From a virus (taxonomy: Duplodnaviria; Heunggongvirae; Uroviricota; Caudoviricetes): a stretch of DNA of 22,134 nucleotides. Both the position numbers and the translations under genes were made by a program. The stretch lies in the IMG/VR virus record IMGVR_UViG_2529292905_000029. One strand, given 5' to 3'. Positions within the stretch are counted from its first letter, which is position 1. Each line of letters begins with the position of its first letter. The notes under the pieces were generated by a model. The model was not told the DNA's origin. It did not search any database and worked only from the letters and a program-made list of their open reading frames with translations. This document shows, piece by piece, positions 6,443 through 22,134 of this stretch.

Positions 6443-6514
6443 AGAACGCCGCCAGTCGTGAAACTTGTTTTCAGGGCTGGCGGGGTTGAACAATGAGCGT
6501 AGCGAGGCGTTAGC

Positions 6515-6754
6515 CTATTTATTAAAAAATTCTAGAAGTGTAATTCCATTGGCTCCAAGGCTTACAAAGCCTTCAATACTATTAATTGATGTGATTGTCT
6601 TTTTCAGAATGTTCTTTAGCTTTGAGCCTTCTTCGGTCGTAGTTATTACTTCGTTAAATTGCTCAGACATACAAGCATGCCCCATTGTGGCTTCTGTTGC
6701 TGAAATTATTGGCTCAATACCAGTTATTTCATAGTCGTCAAAAGCTCTAATCAT
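6515..6754 (-). CDS. Hypothetical small acidic protein, 79 aa (second gene of accessory cassette)
   Basis: Minus-strand ORF in AT-rich DNA. Its ATG (6754-6752) overlaps the TGA (6753-6751) of the upstream 165-aa ORF. Rich in D/E. No recognisable domain. Confidence 0.5.
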   Translation of the reverse strand: MIRAFDDYEITGIEPIISATEATMGHACMSEQFNEVITTTEEGSKLKNILKKTITSINSIEGFVSLGANGITLLEFFNK

Positions 6755-7248
6755 GTTGTCAATGTAATATAATATTTCTTTTTTAGGTTAATTGGGAAGT
6801 CAGAATTAATTATGGATTCCTTCAGTTCTAATAATTGCCCCTTTATTTCAATTAACTGTTCATCTTTAAGTTTTCCAATCTGACCTTTGGTCTTGAATAG
6901 GACTGATATCATCCCTAATTCATTTATGGCATTATCAGAGATTCTTTGGAGGGAATGGGACAGAGATTCTCCCAGATTTAAGTTTTCGAAAAAATCATTA
7001 ACACTGGGCCTCCAGTGTGGGGCTGTGATTTCATCTTCTGGAAAGTAGTCTTTTAATGTGTTATCTATTTTTTTAGGCAAGCTCATGATTTTGGAAATCT
7101 TATCCCATAAGATGGTTTTATTATCTTCAGAACCCTCTAATTCAAACATTTGTAATAAAGCACGCTTTACCGTAATGTTATATGGTTGTTGTGCTTTTAG
7201 CTTGGTGAAAAACTCTCGTAAGGTCAGTGCTGAATTGTCGATGTACAT
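6751..7248 (-). CDS. Hypothetical protein, 165 aa (first gene of accessory cassette)
   Basis: Minus-strand ORF in the AT-rich block, with AGG about 9 nt upstream of the ATG at 7248 and a promoter-like sequence upstream. C-terminal region looks coiled-coil-like (KLKDEQLIEIKGQLLELKESI). No catalytic motif recognised. Confidence 0.55.
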   Translation of the reverse strand: MYIDNSALTLREFFTKLKAQQPYNITVKRALLQMFELEGSEDNKTILWDKISKIMSLPKKIDNTLKDYFPEDEITAPHWRPSVNDFFENLNLGESLSHSLQRISDNAINELGMISVLFKTKGQIGKLKDEQLIEIKGQLLELKESIINSDFPINLKKKYYITLTT

Positions 7249-7290
7249 GGAAAAACCTAACAGTCAAATTATTAATAATAGAACAACAAG

Positions 7291-7319
7291 ATACTAATAA
7301 AATCTAACGTTAGTATCAA
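7291..7319 (-). promoter_or_regulatory. Candidate sigma70 promoter for the accessory cassette (TTGATA-N17-TAGTAT on minus strand)
   Basis: Reverse complement of 7314-7319 is TTGATA and of 7291-7296 is TAGTAT, separated by 17 bp. The spacer contains the perfect palindrome CTAACGTTAG (7304-7313). About 40 nt upstream of the ATG at 7248. Confidence 0.45.
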
Positions 7320-7450
7320 TAACGAATATATGCGCACACTGCATGAAAATGCATTTTCTTTTAAGGGGGCGATATATCGAGTCGAGTCATGGTTGATGCG
7401 ACATTAGTGTGCTGGTGCAACTGCATTCAAACAGACCCATGAAGCGGGCG

Positions 7451-7469
7451 GGCGAGGCGGGGAAAGCAC
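7451..7469. other. cos site: 19-nt cohesive-end sequence GGCGAGGCGGGGAAAGCAC
   Basis: Exact 19-mer that I recall as the P2 cohesive end, found at the expected map position between the accessory slot and the 3' end of Q. A G/T-rich tract follows at about 7540-7610. Confidence 0.7.
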
Positions 7470-7610
7470 TGCGCGCTGGCGGTGGTGCTGATTTTATTTT
7501 TTCAGCGTCTCAGCGCGTCGTGACGGCGCTTAGTCTGCCCGTTGAGGCGTTGGTGTGTCTGCGGGGTGTTTTGTGCGGTGGTGAGCGTGTGAGGGGGTGA
7601 TGACGGGGTG

Positions 7611-7633
7611 TAAAAAAGCCGCCCGCAGGCGGC
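7611..7633 (-). terminator. Rho-independent terminator downstream of Q
   Basis: On the minus strand: GCCGCC-TGCG-GGCGGC stem-loop followed by TTTTTTA, starting about 5 nt after the Q stop codon. Confidence 0.6.
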
Positions 7634-7638
7634 GATGT

Positions 7639-8673
7639 TCAGTCGTTGTCAGTGTCCAGTGAGTAGTTTTTAAAGCGGATGACCTCCTGACCGAGCCAGC
7701 CGTTTATCTCGCGGATCCTGTCCTGTAACGGGATAAGCTCATTGCGGACAAAGACCTTTGCCACTTTCTCAATATCTCCCAGTGACCCGACGTTCTCCGG
7801 CTTGCCGCCCATCAACTGAAAGGGGATGCGGTGTGCGTCCAGCAGGTCAGCGGCGCTGGCTTTTTTGATATTAAAAAAATCGTCCTTCGTTGCCACTTCA
7901 CTGAGCGGGATAATTTTAATGCCGTCAGCTTTCCCCTGCGGGGCATAGAGAAACAGGTTTTTAAAGTTGTTGCGACCTTTCGACTTAACCATGTTTTCGC
8001 GGAGCATTTCGATATCGTTGCGATCCTGCACGGCATCGGTGACGTACATGATGTATCCGGCATGTGCGCCATTTTCGTAATACTTGCGGCGGAACAACGT
8101 GGCCGACTCATTCAGCCAGGCAGAGTTAAGGGCGCTGAGATATTCCGGCAGGCCGTACAGCTCCTGATTAATATCCGGCTCCAGCAGGTGAAACACGGAG
8201 CCGGGCGCGAAAGGTGTCGGCTCGTTGAAGGACGGCACCCACCAGTAAACATCCTCCTCCACGCCACGGCGGGTATATTTTGCCGGTGAGGTTTCCAGTC
8301 TGATGATCTTACCGGTGGTGCTGTAACGCTTTTCCAGAAACGCATTACCGAACACCAGAAAATCCAGCACAAAGCGGCTGAAATCCTGTTGTGAAAGCCA
8401 CGGATGCGGGATAAATGTCGAGGCCAGAATATTACGTTTGACGTAAATCGGTGAGCTGTGATGCACGGCAGCACGCAGACTTTTTGCCAGACCGGTAAAG
8501 CTGACCGGCGGCTCATACCATCTGCCGTTACTGATGCATTCGACGTAATCCAGAATGTCACGGCGGTCGAGTACCGGCACCGGCTCGCCAAAGGTGAATG
8601 CCTCCATTTTCGGGGCGCTGGCGGTCATTGTTTTTGCCGCAGGTTGCGGTGTTTTCCCTTTTTTCTTGCTCAT
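7639..8673 (-). CDS. Q: Portal protein (P2 gpQ), 344 aa
   Basis: Minus-strand ORF of 344 aa, the same length as P2 Q. Adjacent to and overlapping the terminase large-subunit gene; immediately inside cos, as in P2. Confidence 0.9.
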   Translation of the reverse strand: MSKKKGKTPQPAAKTMTASAPKMEAFTFGEPVPVLDRRDILDYVECISNGRWYEPPVSFTGLAKSLRAAVHHSSPIYVKRNILASTFIPHPWLSQQDFSRFVLDFLVFGNAFLEKRYSTTGKIIRLETSPAKYTRRGVEEDVYWWVPSFNEPTPFAPGSVFHLLEPDINQELYGLPEYLSALNSAWLNESATLFRRKYYENGAHAGYIMYVTDAVQDRNDIEMLRENMVKSKGRNNFKNLFLYAPQGKADGIKIIPLSEVATKDDFFNIKKASAADLLDAHRIPFQLMGGKPENVGSLGDIEKVAKVFVRNELIPLQDRIREINGWLGQEVIRFKNYSLDTDND

Positions 8674-10445
8674 CAGTAAAACTCCAGAATGGTGGATGTC
8701 AGCGGGGTGCTGATACCGGCGGTGAGTGGCTCATTTAACAGGGCGTGCATGGTCGCCCAGGCGAGGTCGGCGTGGCTGGCTTCCTCGCTGCGGCTGGCCT
8801 CATAGGTGGCGCTGCGTCCGCTGCTGGTCATGGTCTTGCGGATAGCCATAAACGAGCTGGTGATGTCGGTGGCGCTGACGTCATATTCCAGACAGCCACG
8901 ACGGATAACGTCTTTTGCCTTGAGCACCATTGCGGTTTTCATTTCCGGTGTGTAGCGGATATCGCGCGCGGCGGGATAGAACGAGCGCACGAGCTGGAAC
9001 ACGCCGACACCGAGGCCGGTGGCATCAATACCGATGTATTCGACGTTGTATTTTTCGGTGAGTTTGCGGATGGATTCAGCCTGAGTGGCAAAGTCCATGC
9101 CTTTCCACTGGTGACGCTCAAGTATCCTGAATTTGCCACCGGCCACCACCGGCGGTGCCAGCACCACGCATCCGGCGCTGTCGCCACGGTGTGACGGGTC
9201 GTAACCAATCCATACCGGGCGGGAGCCGAACGGATTGGCGGCAAAGGGTGCATAGTCTTCCCATTCTTCCAGCGTGTCGATCATGCAGCGTTGCAGCTCC
9301 TCGAACGGGAACACCGATGCCTTGTCGTCAACAAATTCACACATGAACAGGTTTTTAAAATCGTCGGCGCTGTTTTCGCGTTTGAGCTGCTCAATGTCGA
9401 ACAGCGTGCAGCCACCTTTCAGGGCGTCCTCAATGGTGACAATCTGCCGCCACTGGCCGTCTGCACAGAGAAGCCCATCGGCAAGGGCGTTATGACTGAC
9501 GTCGATTTCCACGCGTTCGGCGGCGCTGGCGCGTCCCCGGTTGAACAGTTCACCCGACCAGAACGGGTAGGCGTCGTGCGCCAGCGTGGACGGGGTGGAG
9601 AAATAGGTCGAGCGCAGGTGACTCTGTGAGGCCATACCTGATGCCACCTTACGCAGTACCTGAAAATTCGGTATCCAGAAAATCTCGTCGACGTACAGGT
9701 CGCCGTTATGGCTCTGCGCGGTGTTGGAGTTGGTGCCGAGAAAAATCAGTTTTGCGCCGTTATTGCCCAGGACAATCGGGTCACCGGTCAGGTCAACGTC
9801 AACCAGCCGGGCAAAGGCGATGATGTATTCGCGGAACACATACGCCTGCGTTTTACTGGCCGACAGAAAAATCTGGTTATGACCGGTTTTCAGGGCGCGC
9901 AGCAGCGCCTCGCGGGAAAAATAAAACGTCGCGCCAATCTGGCGGGATTTCAGGATATCGCGGATGCGGTGCTCAAGCCCGGCGCGATACCAGTGCAACT
10001 GATAGTCGAAAGACTGCTCAAAGAAAATCTGCTCCAGCTTTTCGATAGCCTCGTCACTGAAAAAATTCTTTTTCGGTTTGCGACGCCCGCCTTTGTTGCG
10101 GTTAGCGACGTTCGGATTAAGGTCTGCCTCGTTGCCGGTCTGGCTGTAACGGTTGACCCGTGCCAGCCGTTCAATCTGGCGTCCGAGCAGGTCAATTTCC
10201 TTGAAGTCACCGCCGGTTTTCTGCGGTTTGATGATGAGCTGGGTCAGCCGCGCTTCCAGACTCATTTCGACACGGCTGATGGGGGCAACGCTGTCCCAGC
10301 CGTCGCGCTGTTTCCAGCTCTGCACCGTCGGGCGTTTCATCTGCAACATGGCGGCAATCTGCGGCACGGAAAACCCCTGCCAGTACAGCAGCGCCGCCTG
10401 ACGACGCGGGTCGTGTAAAAGAGTGGTGTCTGTGGTGATGGTCAT
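8673..10445 (-). CDS. P: Terminase large (ATPase) subunit (P2 gpP), 590 aa
   Basis: Minus-strand ORF. Start taken at MTITTD (ATG 10445) with GAGG upstream, giving 590 aa as in P2 P. The ORF track's longer 600-aa version begins 30 nt upstream. Divergent from the O-N-M-L operon, as in P2. Confidence 0.9.
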   Translation of the reverse strand: MTITTDTTLLHDPRRQAALLYWQGFSVPQIAAMLQMKRPTVQSWKQRDGWDSVAPISRVEMSLEARLTQLIIKPQKTGGDFKEIDLLGRQIERLARVNRYSQTGNEADLNPNVANRNKGGRRKPKKNFFSDEAIEKLEQIFFEQSFDYQLHWYRAGLEHRIRDILKSRQIGATFYFSREALLRALKTGHNQIFLSASKTQAYVFREYIIAFARLVDVDLTGDPIVLGNNGAKLIFLGTNSNTAQSHNGDLYVDEIFWIPNFQVLRKVASGMASQSHLRSTYFSTPSTLAHDAYPFWSGELFNRGRASAAERVEIDVSHNALADGLLCADGQWRQIVTIEDALKGGCTLFDIEQLKRENSADDFKNLFMCEFVDDKASVFPFEELQRCMIDTLEEWEDYAPFAANPFGSRPVWIGYDPSHRGDSAGCVVLAPPVVAGGKFRILERHQWKGMDFATQAESIRKLTEKYNVEYIGIDATGLGVGVFQLVRSFYPAARDIRYTPEMKTAMVLKAKDVIRRGCLEYDVSATDITSSFMAIRKTMTSSGRSATYEASRSEEASHADLAWATMHALLNEPLTAGISTPLTSTILEFY

Positions 10446-10618
10446 GAATACCTCGCCGTGATGAATACACGGCAAGGCTACTGAGTCGCGCCCCGCGATT
10501 CGCTAAGGTGCTGTTGTGTCAGTGATAAGCCATCCGGGACTGATGGCGGAGGATGCGCATCGTCGGGAAACTGATGCCGACATGTGACTCCTCTAATCAC
10601 TATTCAGGACTCCTGACA
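10446..10618. promoter_or_regulatory. Divergent late-promoter region between P and O
   Basis: 173-bp intergenic region between divergently transcribed P and O. In P2 this interval holds the Ogr-dependent late promoters. Contains the inverted repeat GCCGTG-N7-CACGGC (10455-10473) and an imperfect TGT-N12-CAC element (10583-10600). Confidence 0.45.
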
Positions 10619-11473
10619 ATGGCAAAAAAAGTCTCAAAATTCTTTCGTATCGGCGTTGAGGGTGACACCTGTGACGGGCGTGTCATCAGTGCGCAGGATA
10701 TTCAGGAAATGGCCGAAACCTTTGACCCGCGAGTCTATGGTTGCCGCATTAACCTGGAACATCTGCGCGGCGTCCTGCCTGACGGTATTTTTAAGCGTTA
10801 TGGCGATGTGGTCGAACTGAAGGCCGAAAAGATTGACGATGATTCGGCGCTGAAAGGCAAATGGGCGCTGTTTGCGAAAATCACCCCGACCGATGACCTT
10901 ATCGCGATGAACAAGGCCGCGCAGAAGGTCTATACCTCAATGGAAATTCAGCCGAACTTTGCCAATACAGGCAAATGTTATCTGGTGGGTCTGGCCGTCA
11001 CCGATGACCCGGCAAGCCTCGGCACGGAATACCTGGAATTCTGCCGCACGGCAAAACACAACCCCCTGAACCGCTTCAAATTAAGCCCTGAAAACCTGAT
11101 TTCAGTGGCAACGCCCGTTGAGCTGGAATTTGAAGACCTGCCTGAAACCGTGTTCACCGCCCTGACCGAAAAGGTGAAGTCCATTTTTGGCCGCAAACAG
11201 GCCAGCGATGACGCCCGTCTGAATGACGTGCATGAAGCGGTGACCGCTGTTGCTGAACATGTGCAGGAAAAACTGAGCGCCACTGAGCAGCGCCTCGCTG
11301 AGATGGAAACCGCTTTTTCCGCACTTAAGCAGGAGGTGACTGACAGGGCGGATGAAACCAGCCAGGCATTCACCCGCCTGAAAAACAGTCTCGACCACAC
11401 CGAAAGTCTGACCCAGCAGCGCCGCAGCAAGGCCACCGGTGGTGGCGGTGACGCCCTGATGACGAACTGCTGA
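10619..11473 (+). CDS. O: Capsid scaffolding protein (P2 gpO), 284 aa
   Basis: Start taken at MAKKVSKF (ATG 10619), giving 284 aa as in P2 O. First gene of the head operon. Helical, Ala/Glu-rich C-terminal half typical of scaffold proteins. Confidence 0.88.
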   Translation: MAKKVSKFFRIGVEGDTCDGRVISAQDIQEMAETFDPRVYGCRINLEHLRGVLPDGIFKRYGDVVELKAEKIDDDSALKGKWALFAKITPTDDLIAMNKAAQKVYTSMEIQPNFANTGKCYLVGLAVTDDPASLGTEYLEFCRTAKHNPLNRFKLSPENLISVATPVELEFEDLPETVFTALTEKVKSIFGRKQASDDARLNDVHEAVTAVAEHVQEKLSATEQRLAEMETAFSALKQEVTDRADETSQAFTRLKNSLDHTESLTQQRRSKATGGGGDALMTNC

Positions 11474-11531
11474 CCGGCGTCAGTCAGTCCGGGAAAACCT
11501 TCACGATTAACCCTTAATTTCAGGAAAAACT

Positions 11532-12605
11532 ATGCGCCAGGAAACCCGCTTTAAATTTAATGCCTACCTGTCCCGTGTTGCCGAACTGAACGGCATCGAC
11601 GCCGGTGATGTGTCGAAAAAATTCACCGTTGAACCGTCGGTCACCCAGACCCTGATGAACACCATGCAGGAGTCCTCTGACTTTCTGACCCGCATCAACA
11701 TTGTGCCGGTCAGCGAAATGAAAGGGGAAAAAATTGGTATCGGTGTCACCGGCTCCATCGCCAGCACCACCGACACCGCCGGTGGCACCGAGCGTCAGCC
11801 GAAGGACTTCTCGAAGCTGGCGTCAAACAAGTACGAATGCGACCAGATTAACTTCGATTTTTATATCCGCTACAAAACGCTGGACCTGTGGGCGCGTTAT
11901 CAGGATTTCCAGCTCCGTGTCCGTAACGCCATTATCAAACGCCAGTCCCTTGATTTAATCATGGCCGGTTTTAACGGCGTGATGCGTGCCGAAACCTCTG
12001 ACCGCAGCAGCAATCCGATGCTGCAGGATGTGGCGGTCGGCTGGCTGCAGAAATACCGCAATGAAGCCCCGGCGCGCGTGATGAGCAAGGTTACTGACGA
12101 GGAAGGGCACACCACCTCTGAGGTTATCCGCGTGGGTAAGGGCGGTGATTATGCCAGCCTTGACGCACTGGTGATGGATGCGACCAACAACCTGATTGAG
12201 CCGTGGTATCAGGAAGACCCTGACCTTGTGGTGATTGTGGGACGTCAGCTACTGGCGGACAAGTATTTTCCCATCGTCAACAAGGAGCTGGACAACAGCG
12301 AAATGCTGGCCGCTGACGTCATCATCAGCCAGAAACGCATCGGTAACCTGCCGGCGGTACGCGTCCCGTACTTCCCGGCGGATGCGATGCTCATCACAAA
12401 GCTGGAAAACCTGTCCATCTACTACATGGATGACAGCCATCGCCGCGTGATTGAGGAAAACCCGAAACTCGACCGCGTGGAGAACTACGAGTCAATGAAC
12501 ATTGATTACGTGGTGGAAGACTACGCCGCCGGTTGTCTGGTGGAAAAAATTAAGGTCGGTGATTTCTCCACACTGGCTAAAGCGACCGCAGAGCCGGGAG
12601 CGTAA
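11532..12605 (+). CDS. N: Major capsid protein (P2 gpN), 357 aa
   Basis: 357 aa, the same length as P2 N. Position after the scaffold gene. Confidence 0.92.
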   Translation: MRQETRFKFNAYLSRVAELNGIDAGDVSKKFTVEPSVTQTLMNTMQESSDFLTRINIVPVSEMKGEKIGIGVTGSIASTTDTAGGTERQPKDFSKLASNKYECDQINFDFYIRYKTLDLWARYQDFQLRVRNAIIKRQSLDLIMAGFNGVMRAETSDRSSNPMLQDVAVGWLQKYRNEAPARVMSKVTDEEGHTTSEVIRVGKGGDYASLDALVMDATNNLIEPWYQEDPDLVVIVGRQLLADKYFPIVNKELDNSEMLAADVIISQKRIGNLPAVRVPYFPADAMLITKLENLSIYYMDDSHRRVIEENPKLDRVENYESMNIDYVVEDYAAGCLVEKIKVGDFSTLAKATAEPGA

Positions 12606-12608
12606 CCG

Positions 12609-13352
12609 ATGACGAGTCCCGCACAGCGCCACATGATGCGGGTCTCGGCAGCGATGACCGCGCAGCGGGAAGCCGCCCCGCTGCGACATGCAACTGTCTA
12701 TGAGCAGATGCTGGTTAAGCTCGCCGCAGACCAGCGCACACTGAAAGCGATTTATTCAAAAGAGCTGAAGGCCGCGAAAAAACGCGAACTGCTGCCGTTC
12801 TGGTTGCCGTGGGTGAACGGCGTGCTGGAGCAGGGCAAAGGTGCACAGGATGACATTCTGATGACGGTCATGCTGTGGCGTCTGGATACCGGCGATATTG
12901 CCGGTGCGCTGGAGATTGCCCGTTATGCCCTGAAGTACGGTCTGACCATGCCGGGTAAACACCGCCGCACCCCGCCGTACATGTTCACCGAGGAGGTGGC
13001 GCTCGCGGCCATGCGCGCCCACGCTGCCGGTGAGTCTGTGGATACCCGCCTGCTGACGGAGACCCTTGCACTGACCGCCACGGCAGACATGCCTGATGAA
13101 GTGCGCGCAAAGCTGCACAAAATCACCGGTCTGTTTCTGCGTGACGCTGGTGATGCCGCCGGTGCGCTGGCTCACCTGCAACGTGCGACACAGCTCGACT
13201 GTCAGGCAGGCGTCAAAAAAGAGATTGAACGACTGGAGCGGGAGCTGAAACCGAAGCCGGAGCCGCAGCCCAAAGCGGCCACCCGCGCCCCGCGTAAGAC
13301 CCGGAGCGTGACACCGGCAAAACGTGGACGCCCGAAAAAGAAAGCCAGTTAA
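12609..13352 (+). CDS. M: Terminase small / endonuclease subunit (P2 gpM), 247 aa
   Basis: 247 aa, the same length as P2 M. Basic C-terminal tail (KRGRPKKKAS). Position after N. Confidence 0.88.
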   Translation: MTSPAQRHMMRVSAAMTAQREAAPLRHATVYEQMLVKLAADQRTLKAIYSKELKAAKKRELLPFWLPWVNGVLEQGKGAQDDILMTVMLWRLDTGDIAGALEIARYALKYGLTMPGKHRRTPPYMFTEEVALAAMRAHAAGESVDTRLLTETLALTATADMPDEVRAKLHKITGLFLRDAGDAAGALAHLQRATQLDCQAGVKKEIERLERELKPKPEPQPKAATRAPRKTRSVTPAKRGRPKKKAS

Positions 13353-13451
13353 CAACCGAATGCGCCCCGCGCCAGGGCGGCACGCCGGTCAGTGAGGGTG
13401 AATCACCTGACACTGCACCGGCGTCCACCGCCCGACTTTTCAGAGGTAGTC

Positions 13452-13961
13452 ATGATGACGCTGATTATTCCGCGAAAGGAGGCTCCCGTGTCCGGTGAGG
13501 GTACGGTGGTCATCCCGCAACCGGCAGGCGACGAGCCGGTGATTAAAAACACGTTCTTTTTTCCCGATATCGACCCGAAGCGCGTCCGGGAACGTATGCG
13601 CCTTGAGCAGACCGTCGCCCCTGCCCGTCTGCGTGAGGCCATCAAGTCAGGCATGGCTGAAACGAATGCGGAGCTGTACGAGTACCGCGAACAGAAAATT
13701 GCCGCCGGTTTTACGCGTCTGGCTGACGTCCCGGCGGACGACATCGACGGTGAAAACATCAAAGTTTTTTACTACGAGCGCGCCGTGTGTGCGATGGCGA
13801 CCGCGTCGCTTTATGAGCGTTATCGCGGCGTGGATGCCAGTGCGAAAGGCGACAAGAAGGCCGACAGCATTGACAGCACCATTGATGAGCTGTGGCGGGA
13901 TATGCGCTGGGCGGTGGCGCGCATCCAGGACAAGCCACGCTGCATCGTGAGTCAAATCTGA
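13452..13961 (+). CDS. L: Head completion / stabilisation protein (P2 gpL), 169 aa
   Basis: Start taken at ATG 13452 (MMTLIIPRKE), giving 169 aa as in P2 L. Its stop overlaps the next start at 13959-13963. Confidence 0.85.
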   Translation: MMTLIIPRKEAPVSGEGTVVIPQPAGDEPVIKNTFFFPDIDPKRVRERMRLEQTVAPARLREAIKSGMAETNAELYEYREQKIAAGFTRLADVPADDIDGENIKVFYYERAVCAMATASLYERYRGVDASAKGDKKADSIDSTIDELWRDMRWAVARIQDKPRCIVSQI

Positions 13962-14164
13962 TGAAGACCTTTGCGCTACAGGGCGACACGCTCGACGCCA
14001 TTTGTGTCCGGTATTACGGGCGCACTGAGGGCGTGGTCGAGACTGTGCTCGCCGCAAATCCGGGACTGGCTGAACTGGGTGCGGTGCTGCCGCACGGCAC
14101 CGCCGTCGAACTGCCCGACGTTCAGACCGCGCCCGTGGCTGAAACTGTCAATCTGTGGGAGTAA
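13961..14164 (+). CDS. X: Tail protein X (P2 gpX), 67 aa
   Basis: ATG at 13961 overlapping the L stop. 67 aa, as in P2 X. Immediately precedes the holin gene. Confidence 0.8.
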   Translation: MKTFALQGDTLDAICVRYYGRTEGVVETVLAANPGLAELGAVLPHGTAVELPDVQTAPVAETVNLWE

Positions 14165-14167
14165 CGC

Positions 14168-14449
14168 ATGACAGCAGAAGAAAAAAGCGTCCTGTCGCTT
14201 TTCATGATTGGGGTGCTGATTGTTGTCGGCAAGGTGCTTGCCGGTGGTGAACCCATCACCCCGCGTCTGTTTATCGGGCGCATGTTGCTCGGTGGTTTTG
14301 TCTCGATGGTTGCCGGTGTTGTTCTGGTGCAGTTTCCTGACCTGTCACTGCCTGCGGTGTGCGGCATCGGCTCCATGCTGGGTATCGCCGGTTATCAGGT
14401 GATTGAGATTGCCATTCAGCGCCGCTTTAAGGGCAGGGGGAAACCGTAA
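14168..14449 (+). CDS. Y: Holin (P2 gpY), 93 aa
   Basis: 93 aa with hydrophobic transmembrane stretches (LFMIGVLIVVGKVLAGG, LLGGFVSMVAGVVLV) and a charged C-terminus. Immediately upstream of the endolysin gene. Confidence 0.85.
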   Translation: MTAEEKSVLSLFMIGVLIVVGKVLAGGEPITPRLFIGRMLLGGFVSMVAGVVLVQFPDLSLPAVCGIGSMLGIAGYQVIEIAIQRRFKGRGKP

Positions 14450-14946
14450 TGCCGGTAATTAACACGCATCAGAATATCGCGGCCTTTCTCGACATGCTGG
14501 CCGTGTCCGAAGGGACGGCGAATCATCCGCTGACGAAAAACCGGGGCTATGACGTGATAGTCACCGGACTGGACGGGAAGCCGGAAATTTTCACCGACTA
14601 CAGTGACCACCCGTTCGCGCATGGCCGACCGGCGAAGGTGTTTAACCGTCGCGGTGAAAAGTCCACGGCCTCCGGTCGCTATCAGCAACTTTACCTGTTC
14701 TGGCCGCATTACCGCAAACAGCTTGCCCTGCCGGATTTCAGTCCGTTGTCACAGGACAGACTTGCCATTCAGTTGATCCGCGAACGCGGTGCACTGGATG
14801 ACATCCGGGCGGGACGCATTGAGCGCGCCATTTCACGCTGTCGCAATATCTGGGCGTCCCTGCCGGGTGCCGGTTACGGTCAGCGTGAGCATTCACTGGA
14901 AAAACTGGTCACCGTCTGGCGTACCGCTGGCGGCGTACCGGCTTAA
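14449..14946 (+). CDS. K: Endolysin (P2 gpK, lysozyme-like), 165 aa
   Basis: 165 aa, as in P2 K. Start overlaps the holin stop (TAATG at 14447-14451). Sits in the lysis cassette between holin and lysA/lysB. Confidence 0.88.
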   Translation: MPVINTHQNIAAFLDMLAVSEGTANHPLTKNRGYDVIVTGLDGKPEIFTDYSDHPFAHGRPAKVFNRRGEKSTASGRYQQLYLFWPHYRKQLALPDFSPLSQDRLAIQLIRERGALDDIRAGRIERAISRCRNIWASLPGAGYGQREHSLEKLVTVWRTAGGVPA

Positions 14947-14960
14947 ACGGAGTAAACACC

Positions 14961-15386
14961 ATGAAGAAATTATCCCTTTCACTGATGCTGAACGTGTCGC
15001 TGGCGCTGATGCTGGCACTGTCCCTGATTTATCCGCAGAGCGTGGCCGTCAGTTTTGTCGCTGCCTGGGCGATTCTGGCGACGGTTATCTGTGTGGTTGC
15101 CGGTGGTGTCGGCGTGTATGCCACTGAGTATGTGCTGGAACGCTACGGGCGGGAGCTGCCGCCGGAATCGCTGGCCGTGAAGATTGTCACGGCGCTGTTT
15201 TTGCAGCCGGTGCCGTGGCGCAGACGGGCAGTAGCTCTGGTGGTGATGGTGGCGACATTTATCTCGCTGGTCGCTGCCGGGTGGATTTTTACCGCGCTGA
15301 TTTATCTCGTGGCATCGGTGTTCTTCCGGTTGGTACGTACGGCCTGCCGTCAGCGCTTTGAGGGGCGGGAACCATGTCAAAGCTGA
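14961..15386 (+). CDS. lysA: Lysis timing membrane protein LysA, 141 aa
   Basis: 141 aa, with several hydrophobic transmembrane segments. Position after K, as in P2. Confidence 0.8.
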   Translation: MKKLSLSLMLNVSLALMLALSLIYPQSVAVSFVAAWAILATVICVVAGGVGVYATEYVLERYGRELPPESLAVKIVTALFLQPVPWRRRAVALVVMVATFISLVAAGWIFTALIYLVASVFFRLVRTACRQRFEGREPCQS

Positions 15387-15799
15387 TGACTGTGCTGGTT
15401 GTGTTGTTATCGCTGGCGGTGGCCGGTCTGTTTCTGGTGAAACACAAAAATGCCAGCCTGCGCGCCTCGCTGGACAGGGCGAACAATGTCGCCAGCGGGC
15501 AGCAGGCGACCATCACCATGCTGAAAAATCAGCTTCATGTTGCGCTCACCAGGGCAGACAAAAACGAGCTGGCGCAGGTGGCACTGCGTCAGGAACTGGA
15601 GAACGCGGCGAAGCGTGAAGCACAGCGCGAGAAAACCATCACGAGGTTACTGAATGAAAACGAAGATTTTCGCCGCTGGTACGGTGCTGAGCTGCCTGAT
15701 GCTGTGCGCCGGTTGCACCAGCGCCCCGCCTGCACTGACGCCAGTGATTGTCCCCAACACCTGCCCGAAAGTGAGTCTTTGCCCGATGCCGGGCAGTGA
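15374..15799 (+). CDS. lysB: Rz-like inner-membrane spanin LysB, 141 aa
   Basis: 141 aa. N-terminal transmembrane segment (LMTVLVVLLSLAVAGLFLV) followed by a charged periplasmic helical region. Confidence 0.8.
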   Translation: MSKLMTVLVVLLSLAVAGLFLVKHKNASLRASLDRANNVASGQQATITMLKNQLHVALTRADKNELAQVALRQELENAAKREAQREKTITRLLNENEDFRRWYGAELPDAVRRLHQRPACTDASDCPQHLPESESLPDAGQ

Positions 15800-15944
15800 C
15801 CCGCAGACGAACGGCGATTTAAGTGCCGATATCCGGCAGCTTGAGAACGCGCTGGCACGCTGTGCCAGCCAGGTAAAAATGATTAAACACTGTCAGGACG
15901 AAAACGATGCTCAAACCCGACAGCCTGCGCAGGGCGCTGACTGA
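15654..15944 (+). CDS. lysC: Rz1-like outer-membrane lipoprotein spanin LysC, 96 aa, embedded out of frame in lysB and overlapping R
   Basis: Signal peptide with a lipobox-like LCAGC, Pro-rich mature region. Starts inside lysB in another frame and extends into R, the known P2 lysB/lysC arrangement. Confidence 0.7.
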   Translation: MKTKIFAAGTVLSCLMLCAGCTSAPPALTPVIVPNTCPKVSLCPMPGSDPQTNGDLSADIRQLENALARCASQVKMIKHCQDENDAQTRQPAQGAD

Positions 15945-16374
15945 TGCCGTCACGGTGCTGAAAACCAGTCCAGAGATGCTGCGGATATTCGTGGATAACG
16001 GGAGTATTGCCTCCACGCTGGCGACGTCGCTGTCGTTCGAAAAGCGTTACACGCTCAATGTCATTGTGACCGACTTTACCGGTGATTTTGACCTGCTCAT
16101 CGTGCCGGTGCTGGCGTGGCTGCGGGAAAATCAGCCCGACATCATGACCACCGACGAAGGTCAGAAAAAGGGCTTCACGTTTTATGCAGACATCAACAAT
16201 GACAGCAGCTTTGATATCAGCATCAGCCTGATGCTGACCGAGCGCACGCTGGTCAGTGAGGTGGACGGCGCACTGCATGTGAAGAATATCCCGGAACCTC
16301 CGCCGCCGGAGCCGGTCACCCGCCCGGTGGAGCTTTATATCAATGGCGAACTGGTGAGCAAGTGGGATGAATGA
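15907..16374 (+). CDS. R: Tail completion protein R (P2 gpR), 155 aa
   Basis: 155 aa, as in P2 R. Position after the lysis genes. Confidence 0.85.
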   Translation: MLKPDSLRRALTDAVTVLKTSPEMLRIFVDNGSIASTLATSLSFEKRYTLNVIVTDFTGDFDLLIVPVLAWLRENQPDIMTTDEGQKKGFTFYADINNDSSFDISISLMLTERTLVSEVDGALHVKNIPEPPPPEPVTRPVELYINGELVSKWDE

Positions 16375-16819
16375 GTTTAAGCGTTTTGAAGACCGGCTGA
16401 CCGGACTTATTGAATCGCTGTCACCGTCAGGGCGTCGGCGACTGAGCGCCGAACTGGCGAAACGTCTGCGGCAGAGTCAGCAGCGCCGGGTGATGGCACA
16501 GAAAGCCCCGGACGGCACACCCTACGCACCACGCCAGCAGCAGAGCGCCAGAAAAAAGACCGGTCGCGTTAAGCGAAAAATGTTTGCGAAACTTATCACC
16601 AGTCGCTTTTTGCATATCCGCGCCAGTCCGGAACAGGCATCAATGGAGTTTTACGGCGGGAAGTCACCGAAAATCGCCAGTGTGCATCAGTTCGGTCTGT
16701 CGGAAGAAACCCGGAAAGACGGTAAGAAAATTGATTATCCGGCGCGTCCTCTGCTCGGCTTTACCGGTGAGGATGTGCAGATGATTGAAGAGATTATTCT
16801 GGCTCACCTCGACCGTTAG
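16367..16819 (+). CDS. S: Tail completion protein S (P2 gpS), 150 aa
   Basis: 150 aa, as in P2 S. Start overlaps the end of R. Confidence 0.85.
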   Translation: MNEFKRFEDRLTGLIESLSPSGRRRLSAELAKRLRQSQQRRVMAQKAPDGTPYAPRQQQSARKKTGRVKRKMFAKLITSRFLHIRASPEQASMEFYGGKSPKIASVHQFGLSEETRKDGKKIDYPARPLLGFTGEDVQMIEEIILAHLDR

Positions 16820-16885
16820 TTGTGCCATTCCTGACACCTCATCGTCACATTGCCGCCGGTATGACCCGGCGGCATCCTTCCCGTT

Positions 16886-17521
16886 ATGAACACTCTCGCA
16901 AATATTCAGGAACTCGCGCGCGCACTGCGCAACATGATTCGCACCGGCCTTGTCGTCGAAACCGACCTTAACGCCGGTCGCTGCCGTGTGCAGACCGGCG
17001 GCATGTGCACTGACTGGCTTCAGTGGCTGACCCATCGCGCCGGACGTTCGCGCACATGGTGGGCACCTTCCGTGGGGGAACAGGTGCTGATTCTGGCCGT
17101 GGGGGGTGAACTCGACACGGCGTTCGTTCTGCCGGGGATTTATTCCGGCGATAACCCCTCGCCGTCTGTGTCGGCGGATGCCCTGTACATCCGTTTCCCT
17201 GACGGGGCGGTGATTGAGTATGAACCCGAAACCAGTGCGCTCACGGCAAGCGGAATTAAAACGGCCAGCGTGACGGCTTCTGATTCTGTTACTGCCACGG
17301 TGCCGGTGGTCATGGTGAAAGCGTCAACCCGCATCACTCTGGACACGCCGGAGGTGGTCTGCACCAACAGGCTGATTACCGGCACGCTGGAAGTGCAGAA
17401 GGGCGGGACGATGCGCGGCAACATTGAACACACCGGCGGTGAACTCTCATCAAACGGTAAGGTACTGCATACCCATAAACACCCCGGCGACAGCGGCGGC
17501 ACAACCGGGAGTCCTTTATGA
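16886..17521 (+). CDS. V: Baseplate spike / hub protein (P2 gpV), 211 aa
   Basis: 211 aa, as in P2 V. First gene of the V-W-J-I-H baseplate/fibre operon. Confidence 0.9.
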   Translation: MNTLANIQELARALRNMIRTGLVVETDLNAGRCRVQTGGMCTDWLQWLTHRAGRSRTWWAPSVGEQVLILAVGGELDTAFVLPGIYSGDNPSPSVSADALYIRFPDGAVIEYEPETSALTASGIKTASVTASDSVTATVPVVMVKASTRITLDTPEVVCTNRLITGTLEVQKGGTMRGNIEHTGGELSSNGKVLHTHKHPGDSGGTTGSPL

Positions 17522-17793
17522 CAGCGCGTTATCTCGGAATGAATCGCAGTGATGGCCTGACTGTCACTGACCTTGAGCATATCAGCCAGAGTATCGGCGA
17601 TATCCTGCGCACACCGGTCGGCTCACGGGTGATGCGTCGTGATTACGGCTCGTTGCTGGCGTCAATGATTGACCAGCCGCAGACCCCGGCGCTTGAGTTG
17701 CAGATTAAGGTCGCCTGTTACATGGCGGTGCTGAAATGGGAACCCCGCGTCACCCTGTCATCCGTCACCACGGCGCGCAGTTTTGACGGGCGA
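17518..17793 (+). pseudogene. W: Baseplate wedge protein W (P2 gpW), 5' fragment of 92 codons, interrupted by IS
   Basis: ATG at 17518 overlaps the V stop. The reading frame runs into the IS end sequence after codon 92 (...SFDGR). The ORF-track 124-aa product is read-through into the IS. Confidence 0.8.
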
Positions 17794-17797
17794 ATAA
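17794..17797. repeat. Target-site duplication (left copy), ATA(A)
   Basis: ATAA directly abuts the IS left end and is repeated at 19410-19413 at the right end. Confidence 0.7.
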
Positions 17798-19409
17798 GGG
17801 GGTGCGGACGATTTCTTGGACGGTTTATACGGACATCAATCCGACCGCATGACGATACTCGATGGGACTACGCCCGCCAAGCGACACTTTGATGCGGCGC
17901 TCGTTGTACCAGTGGATATAGGCATCGATTCGCGTCATGAGGTCTTTCAGCGTCACGTGCTGCCAATTCCTCGGGTAGATTAGTTCGGTCTTCAATCGTC
18001 CGAAAAAGCCCTCGCATGCAGCATTGTCTGGCGAGCAGCCCTTTTTGGACATCGACCGCGTTAATTGGGCATTTTCAGTGCGGCGGATCCACGCAGGCCA
18101 GCGATAATGCGAGCCCCTGTCCGAATGGATAACCGGATGCTCACCGGGTCGCAGTGTCCGTACCGCGTGATCCAGCATGGTATTGACCAGGTTCGCATCC
18201 GGGCTGGTGCCGATATTCCAGGCCACCACCAGCCCATCGAAGCAATCGACGATCGGCGAGACGTAGACCTTCCCTGCCGGAATGTGTATTTCCGTCAGAT
18301 CGGTCAACCATTTCGTATTCGGCGCCGACGCGTGAAAGTCGCGATTCAGCAGATTCGGGACCGCTGGTGTCGGGTCGCCAGCATACGCCGAGAAGCGCCG
18401 GCGGCGCGGTGTTCTCACGACCAGACGCTCTTGCGCCATCAAGCGACGCACGACCTTCTCGGACACACGCATGCCACCAAGGCGCAAGGCACTATCAATG
18501 CGTCGATAGCCATAGCAGCGGTAGTTGTCCTCGAAGATAGTCCGAATGACCTCACGCACCTGCGTGTACTTGTCGGGCCGCGTCTGCCGCAGGCGTTGAT
18601 AGAAGTATGTGCTGCGCGCCAGCTTCAGGCCGCACAACAGATTGGCTAATGGAAACGTGACTCTGAGGGCATCAACCACCTTCGTTTTTTCTCGGCTTGT
18701 CAGTTCGAGGGGGTTGATGCCCATGTCTTTTTTTATCAATTCACTCGCCTTCTCCAGAATTGCATTCTCCATGCGAAGCCGCTGGTTCTGGCTCTCCAGT
18801 TCGGCCAGTTCCCTGAGTAGTGCCTCATGCCGCTGCTCGAGCGAGGTGTCACCTTTCTTCTTTGTCATGGGTTTTAGGGGCACTTTGCCAAGTAATCGAT
18901 GCTGCCAGTTATACAACGTTGGTCGCGATACACCGACAGTGTCGGCCACATCCTTTGCCGAACCTACGCGCAGGTTCAGTGCAATGACGGCTTGCTGCTT
19001 CTCGAGGCGAGAGCGGGCGACTGTGGGAGCGCTGCTGCCGACGACCGTCCTAGCGAATTCAGGGCGTAAATCACGGATCCAGGCACGCAAGGCCTCGCGG
19101 CTTGGGTAGCCCAGGCTTCGGATTGTGTGACTCAGGCAGTAGCCTTGTTCGATATAGTGATCTACTGCCCGTTGCTTTTGCTCATCGGTGTACTGCCGTT
19201 TTATCCGTTGATAGCCTCGGCGAAGATCCTGATTCCGTTCGAATTCTGCCAACCAGGCCTTCAGCGAGTTCTTGGTGGGGTATCCCAGCTGCCGTAGTGT
19301 GGCGCTCATCCGGCGCCCAAGCTTCAGGTACAACCTCACGGCTCGAAGGCGATCTTCATACGAATACATGAACTACTCCTAAAGTAGTCCAAGATTTTGT
19401 CCGCACCCC
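17798..19409 (-). mobile_element. Insertion sequence (~1.61 kb), IS3-family-like, inserted in gene W
   Basis: Imperfect terminal inverted repeats: left GGGGGTGCGGACGATTTCTTGGAC, right (reverse complement) GGGGTGCGGACAAAATCTTGGAC. Flanked by an ATA(A) direct repeat. Carries one long transposase ORF. Removing it restores a 115-codon W reading frame. Confidence 0.85.
17825..19369 (-). CDS. Transposase, IS3-family-like DDE (rve) type, single fused 514-aa ORF
   Basis: N-terminal HTH region resembling IS150-type InsA (MYSYEDRLRAVRLYL...), leucine-zipper-like segment (LLRELAELESQNQRLRMENAILEKA), and C-terminal rve-type catalytic motifs (HSDRGSHY; SPDNAACEGFFGRLKTE). AGGAG lies 7 nt upstream of the ATG. 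Confidence 0.85.
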   Translation of the reverse strand: MYSYEDRLRAVRLYLKLGRRMSATLRQLGYPTKNSLKAWLAEFERNQDLRRGYQRIKRQYTDEQKQRAVDHYIEQGYCLSHTIRSLGYPSREALRAWIRDLRPEFARTVVGSSAPTVARSRLEKQQAVIALNLRVGSAKDVADTVGVSRPTLYNWQHRLLGKVPLKPMTKKKGDTSLEQRHEALLRELAELESQNQRLRMENAILEKASELIKKDMGINPLELTSREKTKVVDALRVTFPLANLLCGLKLARSTYFYQRLRQTRPDKYTQVREVIRTIFEDNYRCYGYRRIDSALRLGGMRVSEKVVRRLMAQERLVVRTPRRRRFSAYAGDPTPAVPNLLNRDFHASAPNTKWLTDLTEIHIPAGKVYVSPIVDCFDGLVVAWNIGTSPDANLVNTMLDHAVRTLRPGEHPVIHSDRGSHYRWPAWIRRTENAQLTRSMSKKGCSPDNAACEGFFGRLKTELIYPRNWQHVTLKDLMTRIDAYIHWYNERRIKVSLGGRSPIEYRHAVGLMSV

Positions 19410-19413
19410 ATAA
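19410..19413. repeat. Target-site duplication (right copy), ATA(A)
   Basis: Direct repeat of 17794-17797, immediately after the IS right end. Confidence 0.7.
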
Positions 19414-19481
19414 CGGTCACGTTAACCGGTCAGCACAACGACACCGGCCAGCCACTTTCGTTAACCATCCCTGTGAGTTGA
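19410..19481 (+). pseudogene. W: Baseplate wedge protein W, 3' fragment (23 codons), downstream of IS
   Basis: In-frame continuation (I)TVTLTGQHNDTGQPLSLTIPVS ending at TGA 19479-19481, five bases before the J start. 92 + 23 = 115 codons, the length of P2 W. Confidence 0.75.
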
Positions 19482-19485
19482 AACC

Positions 19486-20394
19486 ATGCCGATTATCGAC
19501 CTGAACCAGCTACCCGCACCGGATGTGGTCGAGGAGCTGGACTTTGAAACCATTCTTGCCGAACGCAAGGCGACACTGATTTCCCTTTACCCGGAAGACC
19601 AGCAGGAGGCGGTCGCCCGTACCCTGATGCTGGAATCTGAGCCTCTCGTCAAACTGCTGGAGGAAAATGCTTATCGTGAGCTTATCTGGCGTCAGCGTGT
19701 GAATGAGGCCGCACGGGCGGTAATGCTGGCCTGTGCCGCCGGTAATGACCTTGATGTGATTGGTGCCAATTACAACACCACGCGCCTGATTATCACCCCG
19801 GCAGATGATTCGACTATCCCGCCGACACCGGCAGTGATGGAATCTGACACCGATTATCGTCTGCGTATTCAGCAGGCGTTTGAAGGTTTAAGCGTCGCCG
19901 GGTCAGTGGGAGCCTATCAGTATCATGGTCGCAGTGCCGACGGGCGTGTCGCGGATATCTCTGTCACCAGTCCGTCTCCGGCCTGTGTCACTATCTCTGT
20001 GCTGTCTCGCGAAAATAACGGTATCGCATCCGAAGACCTGCTGGCGGTGGTGCGCAACGCCCTTAATGGTGAGGACGTCAGGCCGGTGGCCGACCGCGTG
20101 ACCGTGCAGTCTGCCGCCATCGTTGAATACCAGATAAACGCCACGCTTTACCTTTACCCTGGTCCTGAAAGCGAACCCATCCGCGCTGCTGCCGTGAAAA
20201 AACTGGAAGCGTACATCACGGCACAGCACCGGCTGGGGCGCGACATCCGTCTGTCTGCCATTTATGCCGCTTTGCATGTGGAAGGCGTGCAGCGTGTCGA
20301 GCTGGCCGCACCACTGGCCGACATTGTGCTCAACAGTACGCAGGCGTCTTTCTGCACCGAATACAGCGTCGTGACCGGAGGCTCGGATGAGTGA
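19486..20394 (+). CDS. J: Baseplate assembly protein J (P2 gpJ), 302 aa
   Basis: 302 aa, as in P2 J. Position after W. Confidence 0.9.
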   Translation: MPIIDLNQLPAPDVVEELDFETILAERKATLISLYPEDQQEAVARTLMLESEPLVKLLEENAYRELIWRQRVNEAARAVMLACAAGNDLDVIGANYNTTRLIITPADDSTIPPTPAVMESDTDYRLRIQQAFEGLSVAGSVGAYQYHGRSADGRVADISVTSPSPACVTISVLSRENNGIASEDLLAVVRNALNGEDVRPVADRVTVQSAAIVEYQINATLYLYPGPESEPIRAAAVKKLEAYITAQHRLGRDIRLSAIYAALHVEGVQRVELAAPLADIVLNSTQASFCTEYSVVTGGSDE

Positions 20395-20998
20395 TTCGCG
20401 CCTGCTGCCGACCGGCTCATCACCGCTTGAAGTTGCCGCCGCAAAAGCCTGTGCGGAAATTGAAAAAACGCCGGTCAGTATTCGTGAGCTGTGGAACCCG
20501 GACACCTGCCCGGCAAATCTGCTGCCGTGGCTGGCGTGGTCATTTTCGGTTGACCGCTGGGATGATAAGTGGCCGGAAGCGACAAAACGCGCTGTTATCC
20601 GCGATGCGTATTTCATTCACTGCCATAAGGGCACTATAGGCGCAATCCGGCGTGTGGTGGAGCCGCTCGGCTATCTGATTGAGGTGAGGGAGTGGTGGCA
20701 ACTCAATGAGGAGCCGGGGACGTTCCGTATCGTTGTTGGCGTGCTTGAGCAGGGTATTACCGAGGAAATGTATCAGGAGCTGGAGCGCCTCGTTGCTGAT
20801 GCAAAACCGGCAAGCCGCCATCTGACGGGACTGGCTATCAGTTTAAGCACAACCGGCAACATTTTTGCCGGTGCGGGATGCTATCACGGCGACGCCCTGA
20901 CGGTTTATCCCTACACCCCGGAGGCCATTATTGTCGGAGGGGATTATTTCCCGGCCTCGGCCATTCATTTAATTGATAACCTGAGAGTAAACGCATGA
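20387..20998 (+). CDS. I: Baseplate / tail protein I (P2 gpI), 203 aa
   Basis: ATG 20387 preceded by GGAGG and overlapping the J 3' end. Stop overlaps the H start. Position between J and H. The ORF is longer than the 176 aa I recall for P2 I. Confidence 0.8.
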   Translation: MSDSRLLPTGSSPLEVAAAKACAEIEKTPVSIRELWNPDTCPANLLPWLAWSFSVDRWDDKWPEATKRAVIRDAYFIHCHKGTIGAIRRVVEPLGYLIEVREWWQLNEEPGTFRIVVGVLEQGITEEMYQELERLVADAKPASRHLTGLAISLSTTGNIFAGAGCYHGDALTVYPYTPEAIIVGGDYFPASAIHLIDNLRVNA

Positions 20999-22134
20999 CA
21001 GTGAAATACTACGCCATTCTGACTAATCAGGGCGCGGCACGGCTGGCTAACGCGACGATGCTCGGCAGTAAGCTGAATCTGACGCAAATGGCCGTTGGTG
21101 ATGCGAATGGTGTCTTGCCGACACCAGACCCGGCACAGACAAAACTGATTAACCAGAAACGCATCGCGCCGCTGAATCTTCTGAGTGTTGACCCGAACAA
21201 CCAGAGCCAGATTATTGCGGAGCAAATCATCCCTGAGAACGAGGGCGGATTCTGGATCCGTGAGATTGGGCTTTATGATGATGAAGGCGTACTCATTGCG
21301 GTGGCGAACTGCCCGGAAACGTACAAACCGCAGTTGCAGGAAGGCAGTGGTCGTACCCAGACTATCCGCATGATTCTGGTTGTCACGAATACCGAAGCTA
21401 TTACGCTGAAAATCGACCCGTCGGTGGTACTGGCGACCCGTAAATACGTGGATGATGAAGTCCTGGAATTAAGGCTGTATGTGGATGACCAGATGAGAAA
21501 CCACATTGCCGCACAGGATCCTCATACCCAGTATGCACAGAAACATAATCCGACATTTACCGGAGAACCAAAAGCGCCGACGCCTGCCGCAGGAAATAAC
21601 ACCACGCGGATTGCGACCACTGAGTTTGTTCAGGCCGCTATTACCGCTCTGATTAACGGTGCGCCAGCCACGCTGGACACACTGAAAGAAATTGCCGCAG
21701 CCATTAACAATGACCCGAAATTCAGTACCACCATTAACAATGCGCTGTCAGGTAAGCAGCCACTGGATGAGACGCTGACTCATTTGAGTGGAAAGGATGT
21801 AGCTGGTCTTCTCACATACCTTGGTTTGGGAGAAGCGGCGAAAAGGGATGTGGGTACAGGAGAAAATCAGATACCGGATATGTCAGCCTGGAAAAGAAAT
21901 CCGAGTTCTAATCGCTGGAGAAAATTGCCTGATGGAACCATCATTCAAATGGGAATATCAGCATCAGGGCCATTAGGCTCACCTGTAAATATCACCCTGC
22001 CGATATCTTTCAGCAATACCAATTATTGTGTTGTTGCATCGTACGATAATGCACGGTCAGGTGTGTCAACAATGGTTAGTTTTGCAGCGTTACCTGTTTC
22101 ACCATCGCAATTTTCCCTGATGTCATCTGTGACT
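20995..22134 (+). CDS. H: Tail fibre protein H (P2 gpH-like), N-terminal 380 codons; truncated by window end
   Basis: Open frame from ATG 20995 to the window end with no stop, so it is absent from the ORF track. N-terminus (MTVKYYAILTNQGAARLA...MAVGDANGVLP...) has the conserved P2-family fibre N-terminal pattern. Position after I. Confidence 0.85.
   Translation, partial: MTVKYYAILTNQGAARLANATMLGSKLNLTQMAVGDANGVLPTPDPAQTKLINQKRIAPLNLLSVDPNNQSQIIAEQIIPENEGGFWIREIGLYDDEGVLIAVANCPETYKPQLQEGSGRTQTIRMILVVTNTEAITLKIDPSVVLATRKYVDDEVLELRLYVDDQMRNHIAAQDPHTQYAQKHNPTFTGEPKAPTPAAGNNTTRIATTEFVQAAITALINGAPATLDTLKEIAAAINNDPKFSTTINNALSGKQPLDETLTHLSGKDVAGLLTYLGLGEAAKRDVGTGENQIPDMSAWKRNPSSNRWRKLPDGTIIQMGISASGPLGSPVNITLPISFSNTNYCVVASYDNARSGVSTMVSFAALPVSPSQFSLMSSVT

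Follow-up and report, generated by a model that had tools for sequence, protein, structure and literature searches.

A compositional step in tail-fibre gene H of a P2-like prophage as the probable junction of an invertase-switched receptor-binding tip

What does the drop in GC content within tail-fibre gene H of this locus represent? The stretch of DNA that was analysed (22,134 nt, called the window below) was found to be a P2-like prophage over its whole length, about 87% of which matched prophages from hundreds of E. coli genomes at 97-98% identity. The gene order W-J-I-H in the window was that of P2-like prophages, with a Phage_tail_fib-type H directly 3' of gene I in the V operon. The invertase-driven swap of receptor tips is a well-known host-range switch, as in phage Mu, P1, and e14. 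Our analysis indicated, with a probability of roughly 0.85, that the compositional step marks where the constant part (Hc) of a phase-variable, invertase-switched tail-fibre gene in a P2-like prophage meets its variable part (Hv). Invertible fibre modules are a long-known system, with examples on record from P2-like prophages of E. coli, and biologically the locus would be a further instance of a well-understood bet-hedging switch that raises no new question. The following parts of H were distinguished.

20995..22134, + strand: tail-fibre gene H, one reading frame, 380 of 395 codons inside the window, cut by the window end
20995..21444, + strand: N-terminal baseplate-attachment domain, Pfam Phage_tail_fib (PF12571), aa 1-150, E=1.1e-60 on the orthologue of locus L001
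20995..21808, + strand: constant part of H (Hc), up to the predicted crossover site, delimited by the homology pattern among related loci
21809..21834, + strand: predicted 26-bp Din-family (cix/pix-like) crossover site, TTCTCACATACC TT GGTTTGGGAGAA, core dinucleotide at 21821-21822
21835..21882, + strand: short linker common to the alternative tips, aa 281-296, AAKRDVGTGENQIPDM, opening the variable segment
21883..22134, + strand: allele-specific receptor-binding tip (Hv), Gp53-like_C from about 21923 (aa 310), last 15 codons past the window

Extent and base composition of gene H

An H that was 97-98% identical to the window H, gap-free and over the full length present in the window, was found in E. 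coli O103 RM8385 (locus L001), NC22 (L002), and strain 12867 (L004), and its length was 395 aa in all three. Since the gene of the relatives has this length and is colinear without gaps, the window H is short by 15 codons and the stop only, and its 3' end past 22134 is expected to consist of 48 further bases that read ...EQGINPFAYWIAFGD and include the stop. The first-pass annotation had considered the receptor-binding tip not visible, but just these codons were absent and the Gp53-like_C domain spanned aa 310-394. The chaperone gene, which it also reported as not visible, indeed lies past the window end. The N-terminus had been called a conserved P2-family one. It belonged to the Phage_tail_fib family (E=1e-60), and P2 gpH has the same N-terminal Phage_tail_fib domain and the same V-operon position after gene I; the conservation, however, amounted to only 42% identity to P2 gpH, over the N-terminal ~250 aa (aa 26-258) and a repeat.

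The GC content of H was 0.518 at 20995-21808 and 0.441 at 21836-22134, and GC3 decreased from 0.565 (153/271 codons) before the site to 0.36 (36/100) after it. Fisher tests of the two sides of the site gave p=6.5e-4 for GC3 and p=0.03 for all-position GC. The gene had been noted as AT-richer from about 21780, and a cut at that position gave GC values of 0.521 and 0.442, in agreement with this observation; the composition check proposed at the same time likewise showed that GC and GC3 were non-uniform along H. In 299-nt windows across the late region (7600-21500), the GC content had a minimum of 0.485, a mean of 0.567, and a standard deviation of 0.032, and none of these windows was as GC-poor as 0.441, which corresponds to z = -4. 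The compositional shift in H is real and modest. An explanation without any real feature, in which the GC dip comes from chance or from amino-acid composition in a uniform gene, could draw on the p value for all positions and on a change-point that was poorly localised (maximum log-likelihood ratio 3.5), but it was contradicted by the GC3 difference and by the depth of the dip relative to the late region. Independently of composition, homology breaks off sharply at the site (described below), and this refutes the chance reading, to which we give practically no credence.

The part of H before the site was itself the AT-richest of the late genes checked, and its GC content was below the window mean of 0.533, whereas the other late genes checked showed GC of 0.54-0.62 and GC3 of 0.58-0.73. 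The description of the first ~260 codons of H as GC-rich was accordingly mistaken, as the first 270 codons stood at 0.518. The Hv stretch showed the lowest GC and GC3 within H. In the protein, the share of Ser, Asn, and Gly together increased from 16% to 31% across the site (p=0.003). The Ser/Asn/Gly-rich peptide quoted in the first-pass annotation was found in the H translation, but nearly all of the increase was due to serine (17% after the site), whereas Asn and Gly stayed at about 7% each, so only the serine part of that description was borne out. A change-point analysis based on GC only was rejected for locating the joint, because its likelihood was flat over a plateau at ~21680-21863 and the precision was ~100 nt at best. 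The joint was located exactly by the ends of homology, whereas composition places it loosely.

The predicted crossover site and the ends of homology

By its sequence, 21809-21834 is a Hin/Gin/Cin/Pin-type crossover site that divides Hc from Hv. Two imperfect 12-bp inverted half-sites surrounded the 2-bp core, and the site was read in frame as LLTYLGLGE (H codons 272-280). A degenerate site pattern gave one match in the whole window, with 0 expected on the basis of 100 shuffles. Alignment with the annotated cixL and cixR of P1, the boundaries of the Mu G segment (gix), and the two e14 sites revealed the same architecture. The TT core was common to the window site, cix, and the e14 sites, unlike the Mu core, which was TC/GA, and the inner half-site GGTTTGGGAGAA was identical in the window and in the site inside stfP of e14. 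In the outer half-site TTCTCACATACC, the window had an A where 17 of 17 relatives had G (TTCTCGCATACC). This private substitution could be taken to favour a static mosaic, in which the tip was horizontally acquired and is now fixed, with the invertase or second site lost or the site inactive, and in which the GC step is a scar. However, the changed position varied among functional gix, cix, and pix sites, so the private A is probably harmless, and an element fixed in this way was considered unlikely on the evidence as a whole.

When H was compared by megablast with phages and E. coli genomes, the matches ended at a few discrete positions. Among 60 records drawn evenly from 1631 matching records, about 22 matches ended at 21833-21837 and 11 at 21882-21885, smaller groups ended at 21747-21765 and 21455-21462, and five matches began at 21808-21821. 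Seven of 18 related loci showed 97-99% identity to the window exactly through 21835-21837 and diverged thereafter, and four loci, together with phage pro483, lost homology to the window at 21882. In silent copies of the window cassette, homology started within 21809-21821. The linker showed 76-92% nucleotide identity to the silent cassettes of other loci. The predicted Din crossover site and its flanks are where homology between the fibre genes of different prophages most often ends. This would explain why the pattern is mosaic and why the cassette has a foreign base composition, and assemblies and comparisons will appear to break there. Some relatives lost homology at 21455-21462, and other breakpoints lay at 21747-65 and 21882-92. 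These breakpoints away from the site, which are also in line with a static mosaic, indicate that ordinary recombination contributes as well. The region had been proposed to be a horizontally exchanged host-range module; the exchangeable tip and the discrete ends of homology fit this proposal, but the programmed, reversible inversion that probably acts alongside evolutionary exchange had been missed.

An alignment of H with the P2, Mu, and P1 fibres had been suggested as a way to find the breakpoint and the donor lineage. It gave a breakpoint with P2, as identity ended at aa 286, but no donor in Mu, as no similarity was found between Mu S and the window H. Colinear identity to P2 H along the gene, which had been named as a refutation of the mosaic reading, was not found either. 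No similarity to P2 gpH was detected after aa 286, and the colinear distal part of the Mu/P1 type, which is present in P2 H (669 aa, without crossover site or invertase), was absent from the window H. Only a shaft repeat was shared with P1 S, at 73% identity over aa 184-257 of a repeat that spans aa 184-266. Compared with the Sv-type tips of Mu, P1, and P2, the tips here were much shorter and of the Gp53-like or Collar type.

The downstream module and its two orientations

In L001, L002, and L004, the genes were arranged in the order H, tfa, tfa', Hv', recombinase, and FI, with tfa' and Hv' on the opposite strand. The module was located between gene I and FI, the slot of G and fun(Z) in P2. 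The first chaperone was 139 aa long, and the opposite strand encoded a 200-aa chaperone and a fibre C-terminus of 177-182 aa with a Collar domain. By Pfam, the recombinase carried Resolvase and HTH_7 domains, both chaperones belonged to Caudo_TAP, and the alternative tip Hv', which was promoterless in the relatives, had a Collar domain. The L001 recombinase was a serine invertase of 197 aa; its alignment with Mu Gin covered 184 aa at 79% identity (E=3e-112). The partner site, TTCTCCCAAACC AA CGTTTATGAAAA, was found in inverted orientation about 1.85 kb downstream in the relatives with a 97-98% identical H; just outside this second site sat the invertase, with the sheath gene FI after it. Exactly two sites, in inverted orientation, were found in each of the 17 related loci that had an invertase, the partner being 1.8-3.2 kb downstream with the core AA on the + strand. 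The outer half-sites were invariant among these 17 loci (TTCTCGCATACC beside H and TTTTCATAAACG beside the invertase). The complete invertible segment of L001 had a GC content of 0.458, compared with 0.54-0.57 for the flanking genes, and this low GC of the entire segment accounts for the AT-richness that was first observed in H.

The window itself contains one site and no invertase, as would be the case for a static mosaic, and from the relatives we infer that the second site and the invertase of the window element lie past 22134. Both sites and the invertase were present in all three loci that have the window H allele in the expressed orientation. Ten further loci were sampled that encode an identical gpI protein, which was listed in 23,277 blocks. 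The invertase was found in nine of the ten, behind an H of 381-602 aa with differing tips, and wherever H was intact in the ten loci its tip was unlike that of the window. The remaining locus (L021) was without the invertase and had only a degenerate site left, which shows the state expected for a fixed tip; the nine other loci and the three with the same H allele argue against such a state in the window.

The gene order of the relatives' module was the same as that of the e14 P segment of E. coli K-12 (stfP/ycfK, tfaP, tfaE, stfE, and pinE), which reads Hc-site-Hv, tfa, tfa' and Hv' on the opposite strand, second site, and invertase. The invertase-side site of e14 was identical to that of L001. 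StfP was 31% identical to the Gp53-like tip, of which it is a diverged allele, and the two had a ...W.A.G C-terminus in common. The backbones differed: e14 is annotated as a cryptic prophage, whereas the window is a P2-like (Peduovirus-type) prophage, and unlike in e14 the constant part in the window had the P2-type Phage_tail_fib N-terminus. e14 has been described as lambdoid (PMC331406, as cited in PMC4272514). The Mu G segment with Gin and the P1 C segment with Cin were also similar to the module here in having a Din-family serine invertase, 26-bp dyad sites at the Sc/Sv junction, and two facing cassettes of a fibre tip and a chaperone.

If it works like its homologues Gin, Cin, and Pin, the invertase of an invertible module in the window would pair the two sites and cut at the central TT/AA, after which the strands would be rotated and rejoined and the segment would flip. 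Hc would keep its place in either orientation. The late V-operon transcript would then read either Hc-Hv with tfa or Hc-Hv' with tfa', and a lysogen population could thereby release virions with two receptor specificities, a form of host-range bet-hedging. Because the 3' third of H would be one of two alternative C-termini, a host range derived from one assembly orientation would cover half of the possibilities. A Fis-dependent recombinational enhancer is expected in the 5' end of the invertase gene. The interval of the gene homologous to the P1 cin enhancer was 72-76% identical to P1 and Mu, an identity that is inseparable from coding constraint, and third-codon positions in this interval were conserved no more than elsewhere in the gene.

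The expressed junction Hc-site-Hv was found in 19-20 complete E. coli genomes. For the opposite orientation, a flipped junction of 654 nt was constructed by joining the invertase-side flank of L001 to the window sequence from the core onward. At least 21 complete E. coli genomes contained this junction in one piece over the full 654 nt (96.6-99.1% identity), and at least 80% of it was covered in 84 genomes. In strain PEC209 (L007), a cassette 98.5% identical to that of the window was silent and adjoined the invertase, while H was fused to a Collar tip; the similarity to the window began at the core TT, and none was found upstream of the core. A G/A polymorphism in the inner half-site, which distinguishes L004 from L007, stayed with the cassette, and the outer half-sites stayed with Hc and with the invertase, as predicted for exchange at the core. 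These comparisons supported the occurrence of the predicted segment in both orientations across genomes, with exchange at the core. The silent Gp53-like cassettes of L003 and L005 were also considered as flipped copies of the window tip, and were rejected as different alleles that were alike only through 21882.

Comparable modules have been reported in the same phage family. Inversion-based phase variation was seen by sequencing in two P2-like prophages of EPEC E2348/69; at least one locus was stated to be phase variation, and four coexisting variants were described for the other (PMC4272514). The orientation of the Fels-2 tail fibre differs between two Salmonella strains, likely via the adjacent pin homologue fin (PMC7953296). 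The EPEC P2-like prophages, Fels-2 with fin, and pro483 shared the phage family and the module position with the window, although one EPEC locus had three sites and four variants whereas the loci examined here had two sites. Phage pro483 was 96.7% identical to the window through 21882, with a divergent tip thereafter and a DNA invertase annotated at the same position.

The receptor-binding tip and the interrupted baseplate gene

The Hv part comprised about 115 aa, and the window held the Gp53-like tip in the expressed orientation. Pfam Gp53-like_C (PF21882) was matched at aa 310-394 of the L001 orthologue with E=2.6e-12 and 47.5 bits against a cut-off of 24.9. A single-sequence search of the tip against PDB sequences gave no meaningful match, whereas a four-allele profile of the tip matched the foot of the R1-pyocin fibre (6cxb, 6cl5) with E=1e-4 and gp53 of AP22 (4mtm) with E=4e-3, so the tip was similar to both by profile, and sequence similarity was low. 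The R-pyocin foot is a lectin-like jellyroll proposed to bind sugars of the LPS core and to set strain specificity (PMC6363177). Together with this proposal, the weak profile matches suggest that the window tip may bind a surface carbohydrate such as LPS.

Dozens of sequenced genomes contained the window tip cassette at 98-99% identity. In strain ECONIH2, the cassette was found at 98% identity in silent form beside pinE, accompanied by the very chaperone protein that L004 encodes. The baseplate genes of this ECONIH2 prophage (J/gp47, DUF2612) were unlike those of the P2-like loci. The position of the cassette beside pinE under different baseplate genes indicates a cassette pool common to several phage lineages, and the comparative data show a single tip cassette circulating between prophages that differ in their baseplate genes, one of them P2-like. 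The putative donor of the tip is the e14 P-segment or Pin-type cassette pool (StfP/TfaP-like), not Mu S.

PADLOC gave no matches on the low-GC cargo ORFs. An IS3-family element of 1612 bp with a 4-bp target duplication interrupted the baseplate gene W at about codon 93 of 115. The insertion in W may keep this prophage from assembling tails and infectious particles, whichever way its switch is set, and inversion may have no phenotypic effect in it. The interruption also allows an explanation in which the switch of a disabled prophage has been retained for the host, for example through a chimeric fibre that blocks the adsorption of other phages. Flipping of the e14 P segment is reported to give rise to StfE2, a protein that keeps T2 from adsorbing (PMC12529663), and the occurrence of the window cassette type beside pinE is in keeping with such a role. 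A host-retained surface or adsorption-blocking switch like that of e14 StfE2 with PinQ, or a switch in which the A-for-G change locks the Gp53-like tip ON, was nevertheless judged very improbable, and the same held for the wider proposal of a module exapted from a disabled prophage. No evidence of selection or expression was found here. The insertion looks recent, since its target duplication was intact, its copies elsewhere were 100% identical, and W was uninterrupted and without the IS in all ten of the sampled loci with an identical gpI protein. The remaining genes of the late operon were intact and 97-98% identical to those of functional-looking prophages.

The tip cassette and its crossover site in other prophages

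The tip cassette of the window, the variable receptor-binding end of the tail-fibre gene H, was found at 98% identity in another prophage locus, L011 (4719-7483), near yfhH in E. coli ECONIH2. The chaperone protein of this copy was identical to that of L004, a locus carrying the H allele of the window, and the copy was silent, adjoining the invertase gene pinE. The baseplate genes (J/gp47, DUF2612) of the L011 prophage were unlike those of the P2-like loci. The cassette, lying beside pinE in a prophage with different baseplate genes, therefore circulates between different phage backbones.

Two features are related to the crossover site, the 26-bp Din-family invertase site in H:
window 21739-21835: pre-site block, ~97 nt, with the crossover site at its 3' end and homology to other tail genes
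L021 9639-9664: degenerate single crossover site in H, TTCTTGATTATC TT GGTTTGGGAGAA

The block showed 87-90% identity to "phage tail protein" genes of E. coli that are not otherwise related, with the matches beginning at 21739, and this sequence sharing suggests a conserved pre-site module common to several fibre gene families with Din sites. The outer half-site, on the constant side, read TTCTCACATACC in the window at 21814, whereas all of the related loci examined (17/17) had TTCTCGCATACC. The variant changed an H residue from Ala to Thr, and its half-site position was not constant across the gix, cix, and pix sites of Mu, P1, and e14 type.

The gpI protein of the relative L021 was identical to that of the window and its H had 507 aa, but neither the invertase nor the second cassette was present in this locus, which seems to preserve the invertible switch as a fixed relic. 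In a further relative, L018, an IS21-family element (IstA and IstB; 8828-11130) was located within H and split the gene at approximately window position 21125.

Interruption of the baseplate gene W

window 17798-19409: IS3-family insertion sequence, 1612 bp, inside W, with the transposase ORF on the minus strand

Gene W (gp25-like, start 17518) was broken at approximately codon 93 of 115 by this element, which had 23-nt terminal inverted repeats, a transposase of 514 aa, and a flanking 4-bp target duplication (ATAA, 17794-17797 and 19410-19413). The prophage is probably tail-defective. The element was absent from L001, which shares the H allele, and from 10 of 10 sampled loci with an identical gpI protein. 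Copies with 100% identity occurred in 58 E. coli genomes, more frequently on plasmids than on chromosomes.

ORFs around the end of gene A

window 5748-6236: ORF, 162 aa, overlapping the end of gene A
window 6515-6754, minus strand: ORF, 79 aa, overlapping the 165-aa ORF
window 6751-7248, minus strand: ORF, 165 aa, overlapping the 79-aa ORF

The GC minimum of the whole window was the 6300-7600 stretch (0.30 around 7033), flanked by the replication gene A and the portal gene Q, the slot of tin and old in P2. Pfam and PADLOC scans of the 165-aa ORF gave nothing significant; this ORF and the 79-aa ORF are candidate cargo or defence genes, so far uncharacterised. The 162-aa ORF contained ASCH/DUF3850 and DUF7415 domains.
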